Notes: generated by a model not told the origin, from the letters alone. Shown: positions 3,649 to 49,880, counted from the stretch's first letter. The stretch: 64,000 nt of DNA from Patescibacteria group bacterium (GCA_018062885.1 JAGORJ010000001.1:151-64150), one strand, 5' to 3'. A program made the numbers and translations.

Positions 3649-4509
3649 ATGCCAGAGCTACCAGAAGTAGAGACAATTAGACAGGGTTTGAGACAGAATA
3701 TTTTAGGTCAAAATATTATTGCTATAGAAGTCAAGAAAAAAAATATTGTCAAAAACCCTAAAAAATATTTTGTTGATTTTTTGCAAAATCAGCATTTTGT
3801 GGAAGTTTCTCGAGTCGGTAAACTTTTGATTTTTCATTTGCAAAATAAAGATTATTTTTTATTGATTCATTTGAAAATGACCGGTCAGTTGATTTTCCAG
3901 GACAAAACACAAACTTTGGCCGGTGGCCACAGTGGACCGAAAATAACCGATCTACCAAATAAATATTCACATGTCATTTTTCATTTTTCTTCTGATGTCA
4001 AATTATTTTTTAATGACTTGAGACAATTTGGTTATCTCAAAATAGTTGATCAAAAAGACAAAGAAAAAATAGTCGCACAATTTGGTATTGAGCCTTTGCA
4101 AGCAAATTTTACTTATCAAAATTTTTTAAAGATTTTCCAAAAAAGACGCATAGCCCTCAAAGCTGTCTTGCTCAATCAAAAGCTGATTGCAGGCCTTGGC
4201 AATATTTATGTAGATGAAGTTTGTCATCAGGCTGGAGTTTTGCCCCAAAGATTGGTCAATACCTTGACTGATGATGAGATCAAAAAACTTTTTAAGGCCA
4301 GTCAAAAAATTATAAAACTTGCCATTGCCAAAAGGGGAACAACTTTTAGTGATTATCGGGACACTGAAGGTAAAGCGGGAAATTTTAGTGATTATCTCAA
4401 AGTCTATGGTCGTGGCGGAGAACTTTGTTTGACTTGTGGACAAAGTAGCTTGAAAAAGATAAAATTAAATGGTAGAGGAACGACTTTTTGTGAGCAGTGT
4501 CAGAAATAG
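3649..4509 (+). CDS. mutM: Formamidopyrimidine-DNA glycosylase
   Basis: MPELPEVE N-terminus (catalytic Pro2/Glu3), H2TH region, C-terminal CxxC-x16-CxxC zinc finger. Confidence 0.85.
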   Translation: MPELPEVETIRQGLRQNILGQNIIAIEVKKKNIVKNPKKYFVDFLQNQHFVEVSRVGKLLIFHLQNKDYFLLIHLKMTGQLIFQDKTQTLAGGHSGPKITDLPNKYSHVIFHFSSDVKLFFNDLRQFGYLKIVDQKDKEKIVAQFGIEPLQANFTYQNFLKIFQKRRIALKAVLLNQKLIAGLGNIYVDEVCHQAGVLPQRLVNTLTDDEIKKLFKASQKIIKLAIAKRGTTFSDYRDTEGKAGNFSDYLKVYGRGGELCLTCGQSSLKKIKLNGRGTTFCEQCQK

Positions 4510-42695: not shown

Positions 42696-43388
42696 ATGAA
42701 ATTTTTAAATAAAAAATATATATTATATCAAAAAGGTTTTACATTAATAGAATTAATCATTGTTATAGCCGTCATCGCGCTACTTGCCGCTTCTGTTTTT
42801 GTGGCGGTTGATCCAGCGCGCAGGATTGGTGAAGGGCGTAATTCTGTCAGGGCTAGCGATACAGTGAATATTAAAAAAGCACTGGAGTTTTATGTTGGTG
42901 AATACAAAACTTTACCGCCAGCTCTTTTAAGTTTACAAGATAATACAAATTATCTAATTGCGGCAGCTGGTGATAATGCTGGCGGTAGTGTTTATTGTGC
43001 TTTGCCTGGTAATCTGACTAAGGTGGATATTACTAATGGTGCTAGTGAATTTTTTAATTTTTTGCCAACCATACCAGTTGATCCATCACAAGGCCCAGCT
43101 TATCCAAATGGCTCGGGCTATTATTTTAAAAAGCAAGGAAATAAAATTTTAGAAGTAAATGCTTGCAATACTTATTCCAATGTACCGGTGTGTGGTAATG
43201 GTGTAGTGGAAGGTAATGAAGTTTGTGATGCGGGTGGAAATAATAGGCCGATCATAGATCCTGTTTTTGGTTATTGTCCAAGTTTATTTTTTTGTTTTAA
43301 TGCTAATAATTCTGTTTGCTCTAATGATAATAGTTGCACAGATGATTGTAGTGCCTGTGATCAATGTGCTGGAGATTGTCCCATTTAG
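42696..43388 (+). CDS. Type IV pilin-like protein with Cys-rich C-terminal domain (paralog of 41451-42128)
   Basis: GFTLIELIIVIAVIALL N-terminus; shared blocks ALDYYVGEY, DITNGAS, VCGNGVVEG.EVCDAG; 14 Cys in the last 70 aa. Confidence 0.8.
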   Translation: MKFLNKKYILYQKGFTLIELIIVIAVIALLAASVFVAVDPARRIGEGRNSVRASDTVNIKKALEFYVGEYKTLPPALLSLQDNTNYLIAAAGDNAGGSVYCALPGNLTKVDITNGASEFFNFLPTIPVDPSQGPAYPNGSGYYFKKQGNKILEVNACNTYSNVPVCGNGVVEGNEVCDAGGNNRPIIDPVFGYCPSLFFCFNANNSVCSNDNSCTDDCSACDQCAGDCPI

Positions 43389-43982: not shown

Positions 43983-45257
43983 ATGTGGCCCTTAGAAGTC
44001 AGGTCACATAATTTTATTTTTTTTATGACACAAACAGAGACAATTGCGCCTAATTTTGATAATTTAGGCATTAGTCCCAATTTATTGGAGGCTCTAACTC
44101 AACTTAATTTTCTTAGTCCCACACCTATTCAGCATCAGTGTATTCCGACTGCTTTAGAGGGTAAGGACATTGTCGGTATCGCTCAAACAGGTACCGGCAA
44201 AACTTTGGCTTTCGGTATTCCGATGATTCAGCTTTTGAGTCAAAATAAAGGTCAGGGTTTGATTTTGTTACCAACTCGTGAACTTGCTTTGCAAGTTGAT
44301 GAAGTTTTACGTAAACTTGGTCAAAAATTTGGTTTGCGTACCGTCGTTTTGATCGGTGGTGCATCGGCTATTCAGCAAGTGCAAAGCATCAGACGCAATC
44401 CGCACATCATAGTTTCGACTCCTGGTCGTTTGATAGATCATTTGCAACAAAGAAATTTGACTTTAGCCAATGTCAAAACCATTGTTTTGGATGAAGCAGA
44501 CAGAATGTTTGATATTGGTTTTATGCCTCAAATCAAACAAATTCTTTCTATGGTACCCAAAGAGCGTCAAACTTTGATGTTCTCGGCCACTATGCCAAAA
44601 GCGATTGCTGAGATGGCTAGCCAATTTATGAAAACTCCTTGGCGTATAGAAGTAGCTCCAGCTGGTACAGTCGCTACTAAAGTAGAACAAGAGATTTTTA
44701 TAGTTGCCAAGAATATGCGTACCCAGCTTTTGGATAAATTATTGTCTGACAATAAGGGTAGTGTTTTGATTTTTTCTCGTACTAAACATGGTGCCAAAAA
44801 AATTGCCGGCTTTATCAGAGTTTTTGGTCACACCGCTGTAGAAATTCATTCAAATAGATCGCTAGCGCAGAGAAAAGAAGCTTTGAGTGGTTTCAAAAAT
44901 GGTAAATACCGTGTTTTGGTGGCAACTGATATTGCTGCTCGTGGTATTGATGTAAAAAATATCTCTTTAGTTATTAACTATGATTTACCAGATAATCCAG
45001 ATGACTATGTGCACCGTATCGGTCGTACTGGTCGAGCTGGCTCAATCGGTAAAGCTATCTCTTTTGCTGGGGCTGATGAAAAATTAGCTGTTAAGCAAAT
45101 TGAAAGATTAATTAAAAAAACTATTCCCGTCTTGGCTTTGCCCAAGCTACCTGAGGCTAGAGTCTCTACTCAAGAAACTAGCCGTTCACATGGTTTTTCT
45201 TCAGGCAGAGCTCCTAGAAGCTCTGCTCCAAGACGCTCAAATTTTCGCCGTCGTTAA
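43983..45257 (+). CDS. DEAD-box ATP-dependent RNA helicase with C-terminal Arg/Ser-rich tail (alternative start ATG 44025)
   Basis: Q-motif, AQTGTGKT, PTRELA, DEAD, SAT, HRIGRTGRAG; C-terminal SRSHGFSSGRAPRSSAPRRSNFRRR. Confidence 0.9.
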   Translation: MWPLEVRSHNFIFFMTQTETIAPNFDNLGISPNLLEALTQLNFLSPTPIQHQCIPTALEGKDIVGIAQTGTGKTLAFGIPMIQLLSQNKGQGLILLPTRELALQVDEVLRKLGQKFGLRTVVLIGGASAIQQVQSIRRNPHIIVSTPGRLIDHLQQRNLTLANVKTIVLDEADRMFDIGFMPQIKQILSMVPKERQTLMFSATMPKAIAEMASQFMKTPWRIEVAPAGTVATKVEQEIFIVAKNMRTQLLDKLLSDNKGSVLIFSRTKHGAKKIAGFIRVFGHTAVEIHSNRSLAQRKEALSGFKNGKYRVLVATDIAARGIDVKNISLVINYDLPDNPDDYVHRIGRTGRAGSIGKAISFAGADEKLAVKQIERLIKKTIPVLALPKLPEARVSTQETSRSHGFSSGRAPRSSAPRRSNFRRR

Positions 45258-45306: not shown

Positions 45307-47100
45307 TTGTCTTGTTTGATCTGTGATATAATATTCGGACTTATGAAATATTTAACTAAACACACATTTAGAATTTTCTGGCAACATTTGTGGCACTACA
45401 AATGGTCTTTTTCTGTTATTTTGATCGCGGTAGTTGTCGGAGCGCTTGCAAATATTACAGCACCTTTATTTTATAAGGAGTTTTTTGATGTTTTGGTTAA
45501 TTCTGGTGAGCTCAGAGACAAAGCTGTTTTGCTAAATATTTTGTTTAAGATTTTTTTAGTTTATTTTATTGGTTGGTTATTTTGGCGCATTGTAACTTTT
45601 GTAATGGCTTATTTTCAGACGCGCGCTATAGCGGATTTGGATAATAGTTCTTTTAGTTATTTACATAAACATTCTGTTTCTTTTTTCAATAATAATTTTG
45701 TAGGTTCACTAGTCAAAAAAGTTAATCGTTTCTCCAATGCTTTTGAAATGATTACTGATATTTTTGTTTGGGATTTGTTGCCCATGATCGTAAATACATT
45801 TGCTATTATTATTGTTTTATCGAGAAAAAATATTTTTATTGGCCTGGGTATTTTAGTATGGATTATAATTTATATTGCGATTAATTATTTTTTCAGCATT
45901 TATAAATTAAAATATGACACTCAAAGAGCAGCTTTAAGCTCTAAAGTGACGGGAGTTTTGGCAGATACAATTACGAATCACAGTAATGTTAAATTATTTA
46001 ATGGTTATGTGCGTGAGAAAAATTTATTTTCTCAAGTGACTGGAGAGTTTCAAAAATTATGGCAATTTACTTGGAATCTTGGTAATTATTTTGAGGCCGG
46101 TCAAGCCATGTTCATGATTTTGTTAGAAGTTGGCGTCATGTATTATGCGATTATTTTATGGCAAAAAAATATTTTGACTGTCGGTGATTTTGTGCTTTTG
46201 CAAAGCTATTTATTAAATATTATTTTGAGATTGTGGAATTTTGGCCGTTTGATCAGAAGATTTTATGAGAATATGGCAAATGCTGAAGAGATGACAGAAG
46301 TCTTGATGGCTGAGCATGAAATAAAAGATGTAAAGAATGCTAAACATTTACAAATTAGCAAAGGTGAGATTGATTGGCAAAATGTTAATTTTAATTATAA
46401 CCAAACTAGACATATTATCTCAGACTTTAATTTGACTATTAAGCCCAAAGAAAAAATTGCTTTAGTTGGTCCATCTGGCTCTGGCAAATCTACTTTATTA
46501 AATTTGTTATTAAGAAATTACGATTTAGTCAGTGGTAATATTTTGATTGATGGACAAAAGATAAATAAAATCAGCCAAGAGTCTTTGTGGCAAAATATTT
46601 CTTTTGTAAATCAAGATCCTATTTTGTTTCACCGTACTTTGGAAGAAAATATTGCCTATGGAAAACCTGATGCTAGCTTTGAAGACATTCAGAGAGCGGC
46701 TAAGCTTGCTTATGCTGATGATTTTATCAATGCCTTTTCCGAAAAATATCAAACATTTGTAGGGGAAAGAGGGGTTAAACTTTCTGGTGGTGAGCGTCAA
46801 AGAGTGGCGATTGCTAGGGCAATCTTAAAAAATGCCCCGATTTTGATCTTAGACGAAGCTACTTCTTCTTTGGACTCTGAGTCCGAAGAAATGATTCAAG
46901 ATGCTCTCTCAAATTTGATGAAAAATAAGACAGTTATAGTCATTGCTCATCGTTTGTCGACTATTATGAAGATGGACAGAATCATTGTCCTGAATCAAGG
47001 CAAAATTGTTGAACAGGGCACACATCAGCAATTAACCACCAAAAATGGCGGTTTATATAGGAAATTGTGGGAAAAACAGGTGGGCGGCTTTATCAAATAG
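45307..47100 (+). CDS. ABC exporter, fused permease/ATPase (MsbA/LmrA-like); likely true start ATG 45343 (MKYLTK)
   Basis: 6-TM N-terminal domain; Walker A GPSGSGKST; signature LSGGERQRVAIARA; Walker B ILILDEATSSLD; extended -10 TGaTATAAT at 45324-45332 lies inside the annotated 5' end. Confidence 0.85.
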   Translation: MSCLICDIIFGLMKYLTKHTFRIFWQHLWHYKWSFSVILIAVVVGALANITAPLFYKEFFDVLVNSGELRDKAVLLNILFKIFLVYFIGWLFWRIVTFVMAYFQTRAIADLDNSSFSYLHKHSVSFFNNNFVGSLVKKVNRFSNAFEMITDIFVWDLLPMIVNTFAIIIVLSRKNIFIGLGILVWIIIYIAINYFFSIYKLKYDTQRAALSSKVTGVLADTITNHSNVKLFNGYVREKNLFSQVTGEFQKLWQFTWNLGNYFEAGQAMFMILLEVGVMYYAIILWQKNILTVGDFVLLQSYLLNIILRLWNFGRLIRRFYENMANAEEMTEVLMAEHEIKDVKNAKHLQISKGEIDWQNVNFNYNQTRHIISDFNLTIKPKEKIALVGPSGSGKSTLLNLLLRNYDLVSGNILIDGQKINKISQESLWQNISFVNQDPILFHRTLEENIAYGKPDASFEDIQRAAKLAYADDFINAFSEKYQTFVGERGVKLSGGERQRVAIARAILKNAPILILDEATSSLDSESEEMIQDALSNLMKNKTVIVIAHRLSTIMKMDRIIVLNQGKIVEQGTHQQLTTKNGGLYRKLWEKQVGGFIK

Positions 47101-47198
47101 TGCAGTAGAATTAAACTTGCTTTATTTGTCAAGATGTGTTATTATAGGGCTTAACTTATTAAACAAGATCCGCACTAAGCGGACTAAACAATAAATTT

Positions 47199-47717
47199 AT
47201 GGGAAATTTTAATCGAGACAGAAGACCAGGTGGTGACAGAGGCGGCGCAAGTCGTGGTTTTGGTGGTGGCGGTGGTAGAGATAGAGGTTTCGGCGGCGGT
47301 CGTAGTTTCGGCGGCGGCAGAGATCGTGACAGAGGTCCAGTAGAAATGCATAGCGCTGTTTGTGATGGTTGTGGTAATGACTGTGAAGTACCATTTCGTC
47401 CAAGCAGTGGAAAGCCAGTCTATTGCAATGATTGTTTCAAAAACAATGATTCTAGACCACAACGCGACAACAGATCTTCAGATCGTGGCCAAGGCAATGA
47501 TCAACTAAAGGAAACTTTGAGCGCAGTTAACAAAAAACTAGATCAAATTTTAGATTTGTTAGCTCCTAAAACAACTAGTTCCAAAGCAAAAGCTAAGGAT
47601 TTAGAAGTTATGTTTGAAGATGCTGAAGTAGAGGTCAAACCTAAGGCCGTCAAAAAAACTACTAAAAAAGACGAAGCTGTGAAAACAGTAAAGAAAGTAG
47701 TAAAAAAGAAAAAATAA
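47199..47717 (+). CDS. RGG/Gly-Arg-rich protein with CxxC...CxxC zinc-ribbon (zf-trcl-like) and Lys-rich C-terminal tail
   Basis: N-terminal RGGxRGFGGGGGRDRGFGGGR repeats; CDGCGNDCEVPFRPSSGKPVYCNDCF zinc ribbon; KKTTKKDEAVKTVKKVVKKKK tail. Confidence 0.6.
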   Translation: MGNFNRDRRPGGDRGGASRGFGGGGGRDRGFGGGRSFGGGRDRDRGPVEMHSAVCDGCGNDCEVPFRPSSGKPVYCNDCFKNNDSRPQRDNRSSDRGQGNDQLKETLSAVNKKLDQILDLLAPKTTSSKAKAKDLEVMFEDAEVEVKPKAVKKTTKKDEAVKTVKKVVKKKK

Positions 47718-47824
47718 ATTTATCACAAAAAACTTAGCTAATACAAAATTTTCTAGCTAAGTTTTTTTATTGAAAAAAAAGCTATTTTGTGCTATTTTAA
47801 TGATAGCTTTATATAAATAAATTT

Positions 47825-49426
47825 ATGGAACTTTCTCCTAGTATTATTGCTTTATATCAAAATATTAGCAATATTTATCACAAGCGTGACATTCTCAAAG
47901 AAGAGGAAAATAAAATTGAAGTTGAAGACATTACTTCGCGGGTGACTTTTGTTTATGAAAAATTACGTAATAGTGTAGATTTTAAAGAGGCTCATTTGTT
48001 GCGTCGCTTTGCGATTGAGCGTAATCTTCGTCGTCGTTTGATTTTGGAAACACTCAAACCTCACATTGCCAAAGGCTTGATAGAGGATTTGATTCGTTCA
48101 AAATACTTGCCCAACAATACTATTCCAGAAAGAATGATTTTGGATGTAGCGCAGATTATTCGTCGCTATGGTGATTTGTTTGTTTTGCTCAATGATCTTT
48201 ATCAAGGCAAAGAGCGTAAAAATTATTTTGACTGGATCATCGGTGTCATGGCCTGTGAGCTGGATATGTTTTTAAATCCAGAAGACATCGAAGATAGCTT
48301 GATTGAAACTATGTATTCAATGGTCAAAAATAGAGTCAAATTTACTGGAGATGAAATAAAAATTCGTGAAAAAAATATTCAGCTTTATATTTCTATTCAT
48401 AAGTCATTGGTCAAATCAGATGACACTATAATTTCTTATCATTTGTTTAATTTGTATTTTCCTGATTGGAGTCATGCAGACGCTTCTTTGGTCAAAATGA
48501 TTGCTACTAATTTTCCGGCTATTTATCGTACCACTAACATGCATCTCAAGCATGCTTACCAAGTCAAATTAAGCAACGCCATCAAAGAAGAAGTGGTGAC
48601 TTTCAAGGTTCTGTATGAATTGATCTTGGAGCATGGTCAAGATATTGAGAGACTTCTGGTCAATCCAGCTGAGCTGGAGTCTGAAGCAAAAATTTTGGTC
48701 AATAAGCGCTATAAACTGATCCGCAACAAAATCAGTCAAAGTTCTATCAGGGCAATTATTTATATTTTTATTACCAAGATGATTTTGGCTTTAGTATTGG
48801 AGTTGCCTTATGAATTGTATATTCTCAAGCATATAAATTATTTGCCGATTACTATCAATATTGTTTTTCCACCATTATTGATGTTTTTGATTGCTTTGAC
48901 AATAGTACCACCAAGTAAAGAAAACACTAGTAAGATTTTGACCAATCTACACAATGTTGTTTACAACAATCCACCAAAGTCTATCTTGTGCAAACTAAAT
49001 GCTAAATATAGACAAAATTGGGGTTTCAAAGTTTTTTATCATTCTATGTTTGCTATTTTGTATATCATAGTTTTTGGCGCGATAATTTCTTTATTACAAA
49101 GATTAGATTTTAATATTTTAAGCGGAGCTTTATTTTTATTTTTCTTGACCATGGTTAGTTTCTTTGCTCTCAGAATCCGTACAACAGCCAAAGAATATAA
49201 AGTGATTCAAAATAAAGCTGGCATCTTGTCATTTTTGATAGACTTTTTTTCCTTACCGATTATTTCCGCGGGGCGTTGGCTTTCTACCAAATTCAAAAAA
49301 ATCAATCTCTTTGCCTTTGTGATGGACTATATCATTGAAGCGCCATTCAAAATTTTTATTGCTGTCTTTGAAGAATGGCTGGGTTTTTTGAAAGATAAAA
49401 AAGAAGATATCTATCATGAACAATAA
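47825..49426 (+). CDS. Hypothetical polytopic membrane protein with N-terminal soluble domain
   Basis: 533 aa; soluble first 300 aa then at least 5 TM helices; 11-bp overlap with downstream trmH-like gene. Confidence 0.5.
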   Translation: MELSPSIIALYQNISNIYHKRDILKEEENKIEVEDITSRVTFVYEKLRNSVDFKEAHLLRRFAIERNLRRRLILETLKPHIAKGLIEDLIRSKYLPNNTIPERMILDVAQIIRRYGDLFVLLNDLYQGKERKNYFDWIIGVMACELDMFLNPEDIEDSLIETMYSMVKNRVKFTGDEIKIREKNIQLYISIHKSLVKSDDTIISYHLFNLYFPDWSHADASLVKMIATNFPAIYRTTNMHLKHAYQVKLSNAIKEEVVTFKVLYELILEHGQDIERLLVNPAELESEAKILVNKRYKLIRNKISQSSIRAIIYIFITKMILALVLELPYELYILKHINYLPITINIVFPPLLMFLIALTIVPPSKENTSKILTNLHNVVYNNPPKSILCKLNAKYRQNWGFKVFYHSMFAILYIIVFGAIISLLQRLDFNILSGALFLFFLTMVSFFALRIRTTAKEYKVIQNKAGILSFLIDFFSLPIISAGRWLSTKFKKINLFAFVMDYIIEAPFKIFIAVFEEWLGFLKDKKEDIYHEQ

Positions 49427-49880
49427 TGATTTTTTTATCATTGCTCATAATATTCGTAGTCTCTACAATGTTGGTACTATTTTTAGAACTGCTGACGCTT
49501 TGCAAGTCACCAAGATATTTTTGACTGGCTATACCGGTTGTCCACCTCGTAAAGAAATAGCCAAAGTGGCTCTGGGTGCAGAAAATATAGTACCTTGGGA
49601 AGCGGTCAAAAATATTTCCAGTTTATTTAAGCGCTTACAAAAAGATAAAATAAAAATTATTGCTTTAGAAAAAACCGCTACTAGTTTAGACTATCTTGAT
49701 TTTGTGCCGGCTTTTCCTCTAGCTCTGCTACTAGGCAATGAAGTCAGAGGTGTGTCAGTAAGTTTATTAAAAAAATCTGATCAAGTGATTAGTTTACCAA
49801 TGAAAGGCACAAAAGAATCTTTAAATGTTGGTGTAGCCATGGCAGTCGCTTCTTATTATATCAACAGTTATAGAAAATAA
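49416..49880 (+). CDS. SpoU/TrmH-family RNA 2'-O-methyltransferase
   Basis: IIAHNIRSLYNVGTIFRTADALQV and C-terminal LNVGVAMAVASYY knot motifs. Confidence 0.8.
   Translation: MNNNDFFIIAHNIRSLYNVGTIFRTADALQVTKIFLTGYTGCPPRKEIAKVALGAENIVPWEAVKNISSLFKRLQKDKIKIIALEKTATSLDYLDFVPAFPLALLLGNEVRGVSVSLLKKSDQVISLPMKGTKESLNVGVAMAVASYYINSYRK

Follow-up and report, generated by a model that had tools for sequence, protein, structure and literature searches.

What does a small, basic, mostly disordered protein with a single zinc finger do in a bacterium of the Candidate Phyla Radiation (CPR, or Patescibacteria)? The question is raised by a gene in a 64,000-nucleotide stretch of the genome of a Patescibacteria group bacterium (GCA_018062885.1, JAGORJ010000001.1:151-64150), hereafter the window. 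A sequence-only reading had proposed that this gene encodes a three-part protein, with an RGG/RG box, a zf-trcl-like zinc ribbon and a histone-H1-like Lys-rich tail, and that this architecture suggests RNA or nucleoid binding. The open reading frame (ORF) lies as described, and all peptide strings quoted for it occur in the translation:

47199-47717, plus strand: coding sequence of a CxxC-x17-CxxC domain protein; ATG start, 172 aa, 18.7 kDa, pI 9.7

The protein clearly belongs to PF23477/TIGR04272, a family that is catalogued but functionally uncharacterised, and its sequence had already been deposited (a 100% identical NCBI entry is named 'hypothetical protein KBC40_00250 [Patescibacteria group bacterium]'). 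Residues 49-83 matched PF23477 (zf_Tbcl_2) with 61.4 bits (cut-off 27, E=6e-17), covering positions 2-36 of the 37-position model, and the NCBIfam model TIGR04272 (cxxc_cxxc_Mbark, CxxC-x17-CxxC domain) was matched at E=9e-17 (60.6 bits, cut-off 36). The proposed CxxC-N17-CxxC motif was borne out by the translation, in which the pairs C55-D-G-C58 and C76-N-D-C79 are separated by exactly 17 residues, and homolog alignments (of 15 and of 120 sequences) showed a fifth cysteine, C62, to be invariant in the family. The search with hidden Markov models (HMMs) thereby upheld a zinc finger in kind but not the family named for it: membership in PF13451 (zf_Tbcl, formerly zf-trcl) was rejected, as this model was absent from the Pfam hits even at E<=10. 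Pfam describes PF13451, like PF23477, as a probable treble-clef zinc finger with two CxxC knuckles, and the window protein belongs to the latter, its sister family.

The family is large. A word-indexed search returned more than 1,257 homologs, and an exhaustive profile search with the finger only returned 6,880 clusters at 50% identity, 4,029 of them at E<=1e-10; the clusters of finger relatives are mostly from Patescibacteria. Compared with the sister species L004 (related loci are cited by L numbers), the gene has a Nei-Gojobori dN/dS of 0.07 over its whole length. By region, the ratio is lowest in the Gly/Arg tract (0.03), followed by the linker and helix (0.05), the finger (0.10) and the tail (0.11), and it rises to 0.18-0.23 in comparison with more distant relatives. 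The gene is real, strongly conserved and under purifying selection, and its disordered parts are under such selection too (dN/dS 0.03-0.35), with a range across comparisons of 0.03-0.18 for the Gly/Arg tract and 0.11-0.35 for the Lys tail.

All three of the proposed parts are present, but a fourth conserved element, a helix, had been overlooked. The four regions are as follows, with confidence given as AlphaFold2's predicted local distance difference test (pLDDT):

47199-47336, plus strand: conserved MGNFNR start and Gly/Arg-rich (GFGGGR-repeat) disordered region, residues 1-46; net charge +6, pLDDT <50
47337-47450, plus strand: zinc finger PF23477/TIGR04272, residues 47-84, C55-x2-C58-x17-C76-x2-C79 plus invariant C62; net charge -3
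47499-47561, plus strand: conserved amphipathic helix LxxxLxxVNKKLDxILxLL, residues 101-121; heptad pattern, AlphaFold2 pLDDT 86-90
47565-47714, plus strand: Lys-rich disordered tail, residues 123-172; net charge +9, pLDDT <50

This four-part architecture is conserved in the CPR family, where the order runs from the start through a Gly/Arg/Phe tract, one or two fingers, an Arg/Ser/Asp/Asn linker and the helix (LNxKLDxILxLL) to the Lys-rich tail, each finger being preceded by M-[HFY]-x-A. The N-terminus follows the consensus M-G/R-N/D-F/Y-N-R, with the MGNFNR start identical in 34 of the 120 homologs, whose first 40 residues average 49% Gly+Arg and whose last 30 average 40% Lys. Two fingers occur in 101 of these 120 best homologs, so that the window protein belongs to a single-finger minority. 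The best 150 finger-cluster representatives measure 109-339 aa and carry 2-5 finger copies, with no large fusions of the finger to enzymatic domains among them.

In the window protein, Gly makes up 41% and Arg 24% of residues 1-46, and F21, F31 and several Gly or Arg positions of this tract are invariant among close homologs. Its repeats are of the type GFGGGR/GGGR, with one literal RGG triplet and five RG dipeptides, of which R14G15 and R19G20 alone fall within 4 residues of each other, a di-RG at best. By the definition that Thandapani et al. reportedly gave in 2013, an RGG/RG box requires two or more RGG, or three or more RG, spaced by 0-4 residues. By motif count the tract falls short of a canonical box and is best called Gly/Arg-rich (GAR-like). 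The Lys-rich character attributed to the other end was likewise confirmed by composition (33% Lys in residues 125-172), while its likeness to histone H1 found no counterpart in the Hc1 or linker-histone models of Pfam at E<=10.

AlphaFold2, run with the 120-sequence alignment, was confident for the finger and the helix only, with pLDDT <50 everywhere else. The finger was modelled as a compact knuckle-hairpin-helix fold (pLDDT about 86-91), in which residues 51-54 and 61-64 pair as a beta-hairpin and residues 77-83 form a helix. Conserved within it are the aromatics H/F51, F66, Y75 and F80 and the basic residues R67 and K72. In the second confident region, hydrophobic residues at 103, 107, 110, 114, 117 and 121, read from the sequence, show the 3-4 heptad spacing that short coiled coils typically have, and K113, L114 and D115 are invariant or nearly so, with a KLDxhh motif in 112 of the 120 homologs. 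Residues 101-121 are therefore a probable oligomerisation helix, as judged from heptad spacing and model.

The only experiment on the family concerns two Methanosarcina mazei proteins, A00184 and A01980, which contain the same finger domain and bind zinc as measured by inductively coupled plasma mass spectrometry (ICP-MS); their role was left open, with a speculative link to transcription (PMC12704099). By homology, the four cysteines of the window protein would bind zinc as well. The M. mazei proteins are finger-only mini-proteins, whereas the window protein adds the Gly/Arg tract, the helix, the Lys tail and the fifth invariant cysteine.

Binding of RNA or the nucleoid, as originally suggested, is plausible for a protein of this build. 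The reading that we prefer is that of a multivalent, oligomerising nucleic-acid binder with RNA a more likely ligand than DNA, to which we give a probability of roughly 0.5. It is favoured because a finger and an oligomerisation-type helix are embedded in two highly basic disordered regions that are themselves under selection, an arrangement known from multivalent nucleic-acid binders and chaperones. The Gly/Arg/Phe-rich N-terminus and the Lys-rich C-terminus would make low-specificity electrostatic and stacking contacts, and the treble-clef finger would serve as the one folded recognition module. The heptad helix would gather several chains, and the resulting assembly could bridge, anneal or condense nucleic acids. 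Within the clade of the window, the protein probably also acts as the partner of a neighbouring minimal DEAD-box helicase that itself has no RNA-binding extension. It would then be a trans-acting RNA-tethering or chaperoning cofactor, much as eIF4B and eIF4H are for eIF4A. Both the oligomerisation and the helicase partnership are features that we infer.

The preference for RNA comes in part from analogy. Combinations of Gly/Arg-rich regions with small zinc fingers or knuckles are known from RNA chaperones and RNA-binding proteins such as FUS/EWS/TAF15 and the plant cold-shock-domain (CSD)-Gly-rich-CCHC proteins, and the GAR domains of nucleolin and fibrillarin are further such examples. As the pairing of GAR tracts and small zinc modules recurs in RNA chaperones, the same may hold here. 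The FUS/EWSR1/TAF15 proteins and the plant cold-shock proteins resemble the window protein in having disordered Gly/Arg(/aromatic) tracts that flank small zinc modules, a design that gives multivalent RNA binding, chaperoning and condensation. The window protein, in contrast, has no RNA recognition motif (RRM), cold-shock domain, RanBP2-type or CCHC finger and no homology to them; it has Phe rather than Tyr, a single RGG triplet and a bacterial origin, so that the comparison is one of analogy only. Membership in the FET family (FUS/EWSR1/TAF15) was rejected, given the lack of any RRM or zf-RanBP match in Pfam. The comparison with eIF4B/eIF4H, likewise basic, Gly/Arg-rich RNA-binding accessory proteins, is purely functional; the window protein has no RRM.

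RNA is also favoured because the recurring neighbours other than SET genes encode RNA enzymes: a DEAD-box helicase, a beta-CASP nuclease and a SpoU methylase (the last in this clade). Two genes precede the zinc-finger gene in the window:

43983-45257, plus strand: minimal DEAD-box RNA helicase of 424 aa (Pfam DEAD and Helicase_C), its short tail rich in Arg/Ser
45307-47100, plus strand: ABC exporter (Pfam ABC_membrane and ABC_tran), between the helicase and the zinc-finger gene

The helicase is bare apart from its two RecA-like domains and a tail of about 30 aa (…SRSHGFSSGRAPRSSAPRRSNFRRR). This tail, formerly read as of RS/RGG type, is indeed short, basic and Arg/Ser-rich but is not an RGG box. 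In the Nomurabacteria loci L006/L001, a helicase 81% identical to the window ortholog lies 67 bp upstream of the zinc-finger gene, which is followed by a 533-aa protein and a SpoU methylase. The window, L004 and L005 keep this order with the ABC exporter inserted between helicase and zinc-finger gene.

We examined neighbours across the family in 80 species-level loci, in which ORFs were called and neighbouring genes clustered, with the flanks at 2.5-10 kb as the background for enrichment (2.6 DEAD-box genes per Mb). DEAD-box helicase genes were found in eight loci, in six of them within 2.3 kb of the zinc-finger gene. Six within 2.5 kb compare with 0.9 expected (P=3.5e-4), and counting the window's clade once leaves 4 independent cases against 0.9 (P=0.014). 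The adjacency of helicase and zinc-finger gene is not a family-wide operon. The proposed RNA-handling theme shared with the helicase is thereby moderately supported, by the 67-bp adjacency in L006 and an enrichment at P of about 0.014. A beta-CASP metallo-beta-lactamase gene (RNase J/CPSF-like, about 450 aa, assigned from sequence motifs without Pfam) lies upstream on the minus strand as a divergent neighbour in six loci (L009, L021, L028, L032, L033 and L054), and in L021, L028 and L054 a SET gene follows just beyond it.

Several observations weigh against an RNA binder of this kind. The helicase link is limited to a clade and statistically modest after allowing for shared ancestry. The N-terminal tract holds only the one RGG triplet and is not a canonical RGG box, and the finger core, whose net charge averages -0.8 (near neutral to slightly acidic), would suit a protein-protein module too. 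The window protein has no detectable relative among solved structures or characterised folds. Whole-protein and finger-only profiles found nothing below E=0.37 among all chains of the Protein Data Bank (PDB), the best match, of the helix to a pneumovirus phosphoprotein helix (6yp5, E=0.37), being non-significant. A Foldseek search of the AlphaFold2 model against the PDB reached E=2.3 at best, with generic treble-clef, PHD or LIM fingers only. For every member of the family, nucleic-acid binding is a property that we infer. A further point is that the strongest conserved neighbour in the family, a SET-domain gene, points towards DNA rather than RNA, because the known prokaryotic SET substrates are DNA-binding chromatin proteins.

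The SET link, which was unexpected, holds in both directions and is the strongest neighbour signal in the family. SET-domain genes (PF00856, E about 1e-18 to 1e-20) number 17 in 15 of the 80 zinc-finger loci. Fifteen of the 17 lie within 2.5 kb of the zinc-finger gene, against 0.9 expected (P about 7e-14). In at least seven species, including L046, L058, L059, L060, L022 and L031, the SET gene lies 10-50 bp upstream on the same strand; further loci with a SET neighbour are L019, L021, L028, L044, L054, L057 and L079. Two divergent subfamilies occur near the gene: one measures about 130 aa, the other is longer and has a Cys-rich post-SET region, and a single locus has both in tandem. For the reciprocal test, 80 metagenomic loci with the longer SET type were fetched (L084-L163, some contigs being redundant), and a member of the zinc-finger family was present within 4 kb in 22 of the 80. 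Of these 22 members 20 are canonical, all on the SET strand. A stricter motif scan placed a member within 1.5 kb downstream of SET in 13 of the 66 loci with enough downstream flank. Many of the SET-linked family proteins are single-finger, as is the window protein. The link suggests lysine methylation of the zinc-finger protein by the neighbouring SET enzyme.

The main alternative is that the protein is a nucleoid-associated, histone-H1-like DNA compactor. Its Lys tail, helped by the Gly/Arg tract, would coat and bridge the DNA of these very small cells, and in SET-adjacent lineages lysine methylation would tune the charge or affinity of the tail. We consider it a possibility, if one on the unlikely side. 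A tail of 33-40% Lys is kept across the family, which fits, as does the reciprocal association with closely upstream SET genes. To our knowledge, chromatin proteins are the endogenous substrates of both prokaryotic SET enzymes characterised in this respect: Hc1/Hc2 for Chlamydia cpnSET, and MC1-alpha for the SET enzyme of Methanosarcina mazei. Chlamydia Hc1/Hc2 and the Lys/Ala/Pro-rich tail of mycobacterial HupB share a Lys-rich disordered tail with the window protein, and the pairing of Hc1/Hc2 with cpnSET is paralleled by the SET-gene link of the zinc-finger family in other CPR lineages. Hc1, Hc2 and HupB, however, lack the zinc finger, the Gly/Arg tract and the coiled-coil helix, and membership among Hc1 or linker histones was rejected, with no Pfam hit at E<=10 and Lys-rich composition alone shared. 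Nor does the window itself contain a SET gene: tblastn of four SET proteins against the 64 kb gave nothing below E=0.19, and in the closest relatives, L004-L007, the gene has no SET neighbour either. Ribosomal and other RNA-associated proteins are likewise substrates of SET enzymes, so that the link is not specific to DNA, and the Gly/Arg tracts, like the helicase and RNase genes nearby, speak for RNA instead.

Alternatively, the finger may be a protein docking module, for example for RNA polymerase, the ribosome, the DEAD-box helicase or a beta-CASP RNase, and the protein a regulator or adaptor more than a binder of nucleic acids; this we regard as unlikely. The neutral to acidic finger core would suit such a role. 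So would the finger-only versions of 34-77 aa in CPR bacteria and DPANN archaea and those of Methanosarcina, a size typical of subunits and factors. The CxxC-x17-CxxC spacing is also that of polymerase-docking ribbons of the TFIIB/DksA type (noted in PMC12704099), and small ribosomal zinc proteins are among the non-significant fold-search matches (archaeal ribosome chains in Foldseek, E about 6-8). Sequence similarity to solved ribosomal or polymerase-binding zinc proteins was nevertheless absent. This includes aS21, a small zinc-finger protein of the archaeal 30S subunit (PMC12605026), which was set aside, a trivial eS26 fragment at E=9.7 being the sole ribosomal zinc match. Two highly charged tails under selection are also hard to explain without a polyanion partner.

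That the ORF is spurious, a mis-called frame of low-complexity Gly/Arg and Lys tracts, is next to impossible: such composition would fit, as would a shadow ORF of 92 aa on the complementary strand, but PF23477/TIGR04272 scores far over their cut-offs, thousands of homologs with the same MGNFNR start, finger, helix and tail, a dN/dS of 0.07 and the gene's own promoter-like block and terminator rule out the low-complexity noise, without a zinc-ribbon match, that had been named as the outcome to fear.

The RNA-binding, H1-like and docking readings are not mutually exclusive. A bolder picture is that of a family-wide CPR scaffold built like eukaryotic FUS or histone H1, whose Lys tail would in many lineages be methylated by an operon-encoded SET enzyme and which in the window's clade would serve as the trans-acting RNA-binding arm of a minimal helicase; as a whole, we think this picture doubtful.

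The window gene itself is unremarkable within its large catalogued family, but the family makes a good, cheap experimental target. CPR bacteria account for a large share of bacterial diversity and have tiny genomes, in which this gene is kept under strong purifying selection. If the preferred reading of a nucleic-acid binder is true, a conserved, seemingly abundant and mostly disordered protein would be a core piece of CPR RNA metabolism or nucleoid organisation, and its Gly/Arg/Phe plus Lys-rich design would offer a minimal bacterial model for condensate-type proteins. The SET operon link presents a directly testable candidate enzyme-substrate pair where endogenous bacterial SET substrates are almost unknown. 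If true, bacteria would have an endogenous switch that works by methylation of a chromatin-like or ribonucleoprotein-condensate scaffold. Should the protein be merely a generic basic zinc protein, a large family of 'hypothetical proteins' would still gain in annotation. We found no literature on PF13451, zf-trcl or the InterPro identifiers, none linking SET domains to CPR, and on CxxC-x17-CxxC only the M. mazei small-protein paper (PMC12704099). The four-part CPR architecture, the selection on its disordered parts and the reciprocal SET operon link thus seem undescribed in the searchable literature.

Three elements lie around the gene, which appears to be a self-contained transcription unit:

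47117-47145, plus strand: promoter-like block; -35 TTGCTT at 47117-47122, 17-nt spacer, extended -10 TGtTATTAT at 47137-47145
47166-47185, plus strand: 5'-untranslated region (5'-UTR) hairpin GATCCGC-ACTAA-GCGGAC; 5-7 bp stem, -8.3 kcal/mol, z=-4.2
47727-47768, plus strand: intrinsic terminator; 14-bp A/U-extended stem with core CTTAGCTA/TAGCTAAG, then T7; -14.7 kcal/mol, z=-5.8

The consensus AACTTGCTwTwTTTGTCAAkATGTGTTATTrTA is nearly invariant in the window, L004, L005 and L007, among whose genes synonymous sites are saturated (dS about 1). Near-invariance despite such divergence marks the block as a selected element, most simply the gene's own promoter. Equivalents of the form TTGCTw-N17-TAnAAT stand before the gene in L011, in L006 (where they follow the helicase) and in L008 (where they follow a tRNA with its terminator). 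A generic promoter scan did not list the block, its -35 matching at 3/6 positions only. A 5'-UTR hairpin of other sequence lies at the same place in L004 (about 2135-2149, z=-2.9) and L007 (about 4468-4491, z=-5.8) and is absent in L005; it could act as a stabiliser or an autoregulatory site. No Shine-Dalgarno-like purine run is present at 47188-47198, just before the ATG (…aaacaataaattt ATG), and relatives have the same A/U-rich leader. Downstream, a hairpin and T-run also follow the gene in L004, L005, L006, L007 and L011; low G+C in the stem caused a generic terminator scan to miss the one in the window.

Co-transcription with the upstream ABC exporter had been suggested across a 99-bp gap with an extended -10-like element. 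That element stands at 47137-47145, but the gap from the exporter stop measures 98 nt (47101-47198). Co-transcription is not required, as the gene has its own promoter-like block and its hairpin and U7 terminator and the exporter is absent from the syntenic locus L006. Read-through from the exporter may still occur, there being no obvious terminator at 47101-47116, between exporter and block, but it is not needed. We rejected the exporter as a functional partner, since ABC exporters are common, this one is missing from L006 and the synteny is clade-specific. The upstream sequence of L007 ends with the same ABC C-terminal coding motif, and in L011 an ABC exporter abuts the gene. The exporter ORF is listed from a TTG at 45307, while homologs start at the equivalent of MKYLTKHTF… (MQYLTRETF… in L011), so that its true start is probably an ATG about 12 codons downstream (within 45307-45345).

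Directly downstream of the zinc-finger gene, 47825-49426 encodes the 533-aa protein, which has no Pfam match and a hydrophobic, membrane-like C-terminal half and neighbours the zinc-finger gene in 7 related loci; the SpoU-family methylase comes next (49416-49880). An Rfam search over the whole window found three tRNAs only, none near the gene. Upstream of the helicase, the ORF at 42696-43388 has an N-terminus like that of type IV pilins (…KGFTLIELIIVIAVIALLAA…) and a C-terminal region rich in Cys. Elsewhere in the family, the MMS-operon (dnaG-rpoD) lies 1-7 kb from the gene in eight loci, a proximity that we set aside as too loose to interpret. The phage library PHROGs and the defence library PADLOC held nothing significant for the protein, and the helix region used alone as a query for module shuffling gave no candidates.

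The finger family is found in many CPR lineages. Named sources are Parcubacteria, Nomurabacteria, Komeilibacteria, Falkowbacteria, Magasanikbacteria, Peregrinibacteria, Dojkabacteria, Microgenomates (including Daviesbacteria, Woesebacteria, Levybacteria and Collierbacteria) and CPR3, together with records labelled Saccharibacteria. The 34-77 aa mini-proteins consisting of the finger only come from Microgenomates, Saccharibacteria and DPANN archaea, and the family was founded on small proteins of Methanosarcina. Many loci with typical CPR-type members come from metagenome-assembled genomes (MAGs) labelled 'uncultured Gammaproteobacteria', 'Bathyarchaeia', 'Melioribacteraceae' and 'Methanosarcinales' (e.g. 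L008-L010, L016, L017, L033, L062); these labels are probably placeholders or reflect mis-binned contigs and are no guide to the host range of the family.

A variant member with a long acidic Asp/Glu/Pro-rich N-terminus was found in L102 (2411-2719, minus strand) and L103 (5074-5382, minus strand). Its finger is C-terminal and lacks the fifth cysteine (CANCGKQTQVPF…), and a SET gene lies nearby on the opposite strand. Within the window, the sole other CxxC…CxxC motif, at 4426-4500 (CLTCGQSSLKKIKLNGRGTTFCEQC), resembles the C-terminal zinc finger of Fpg/MutM-type glycosylases and is unrelated to the zinc-finger family described here.

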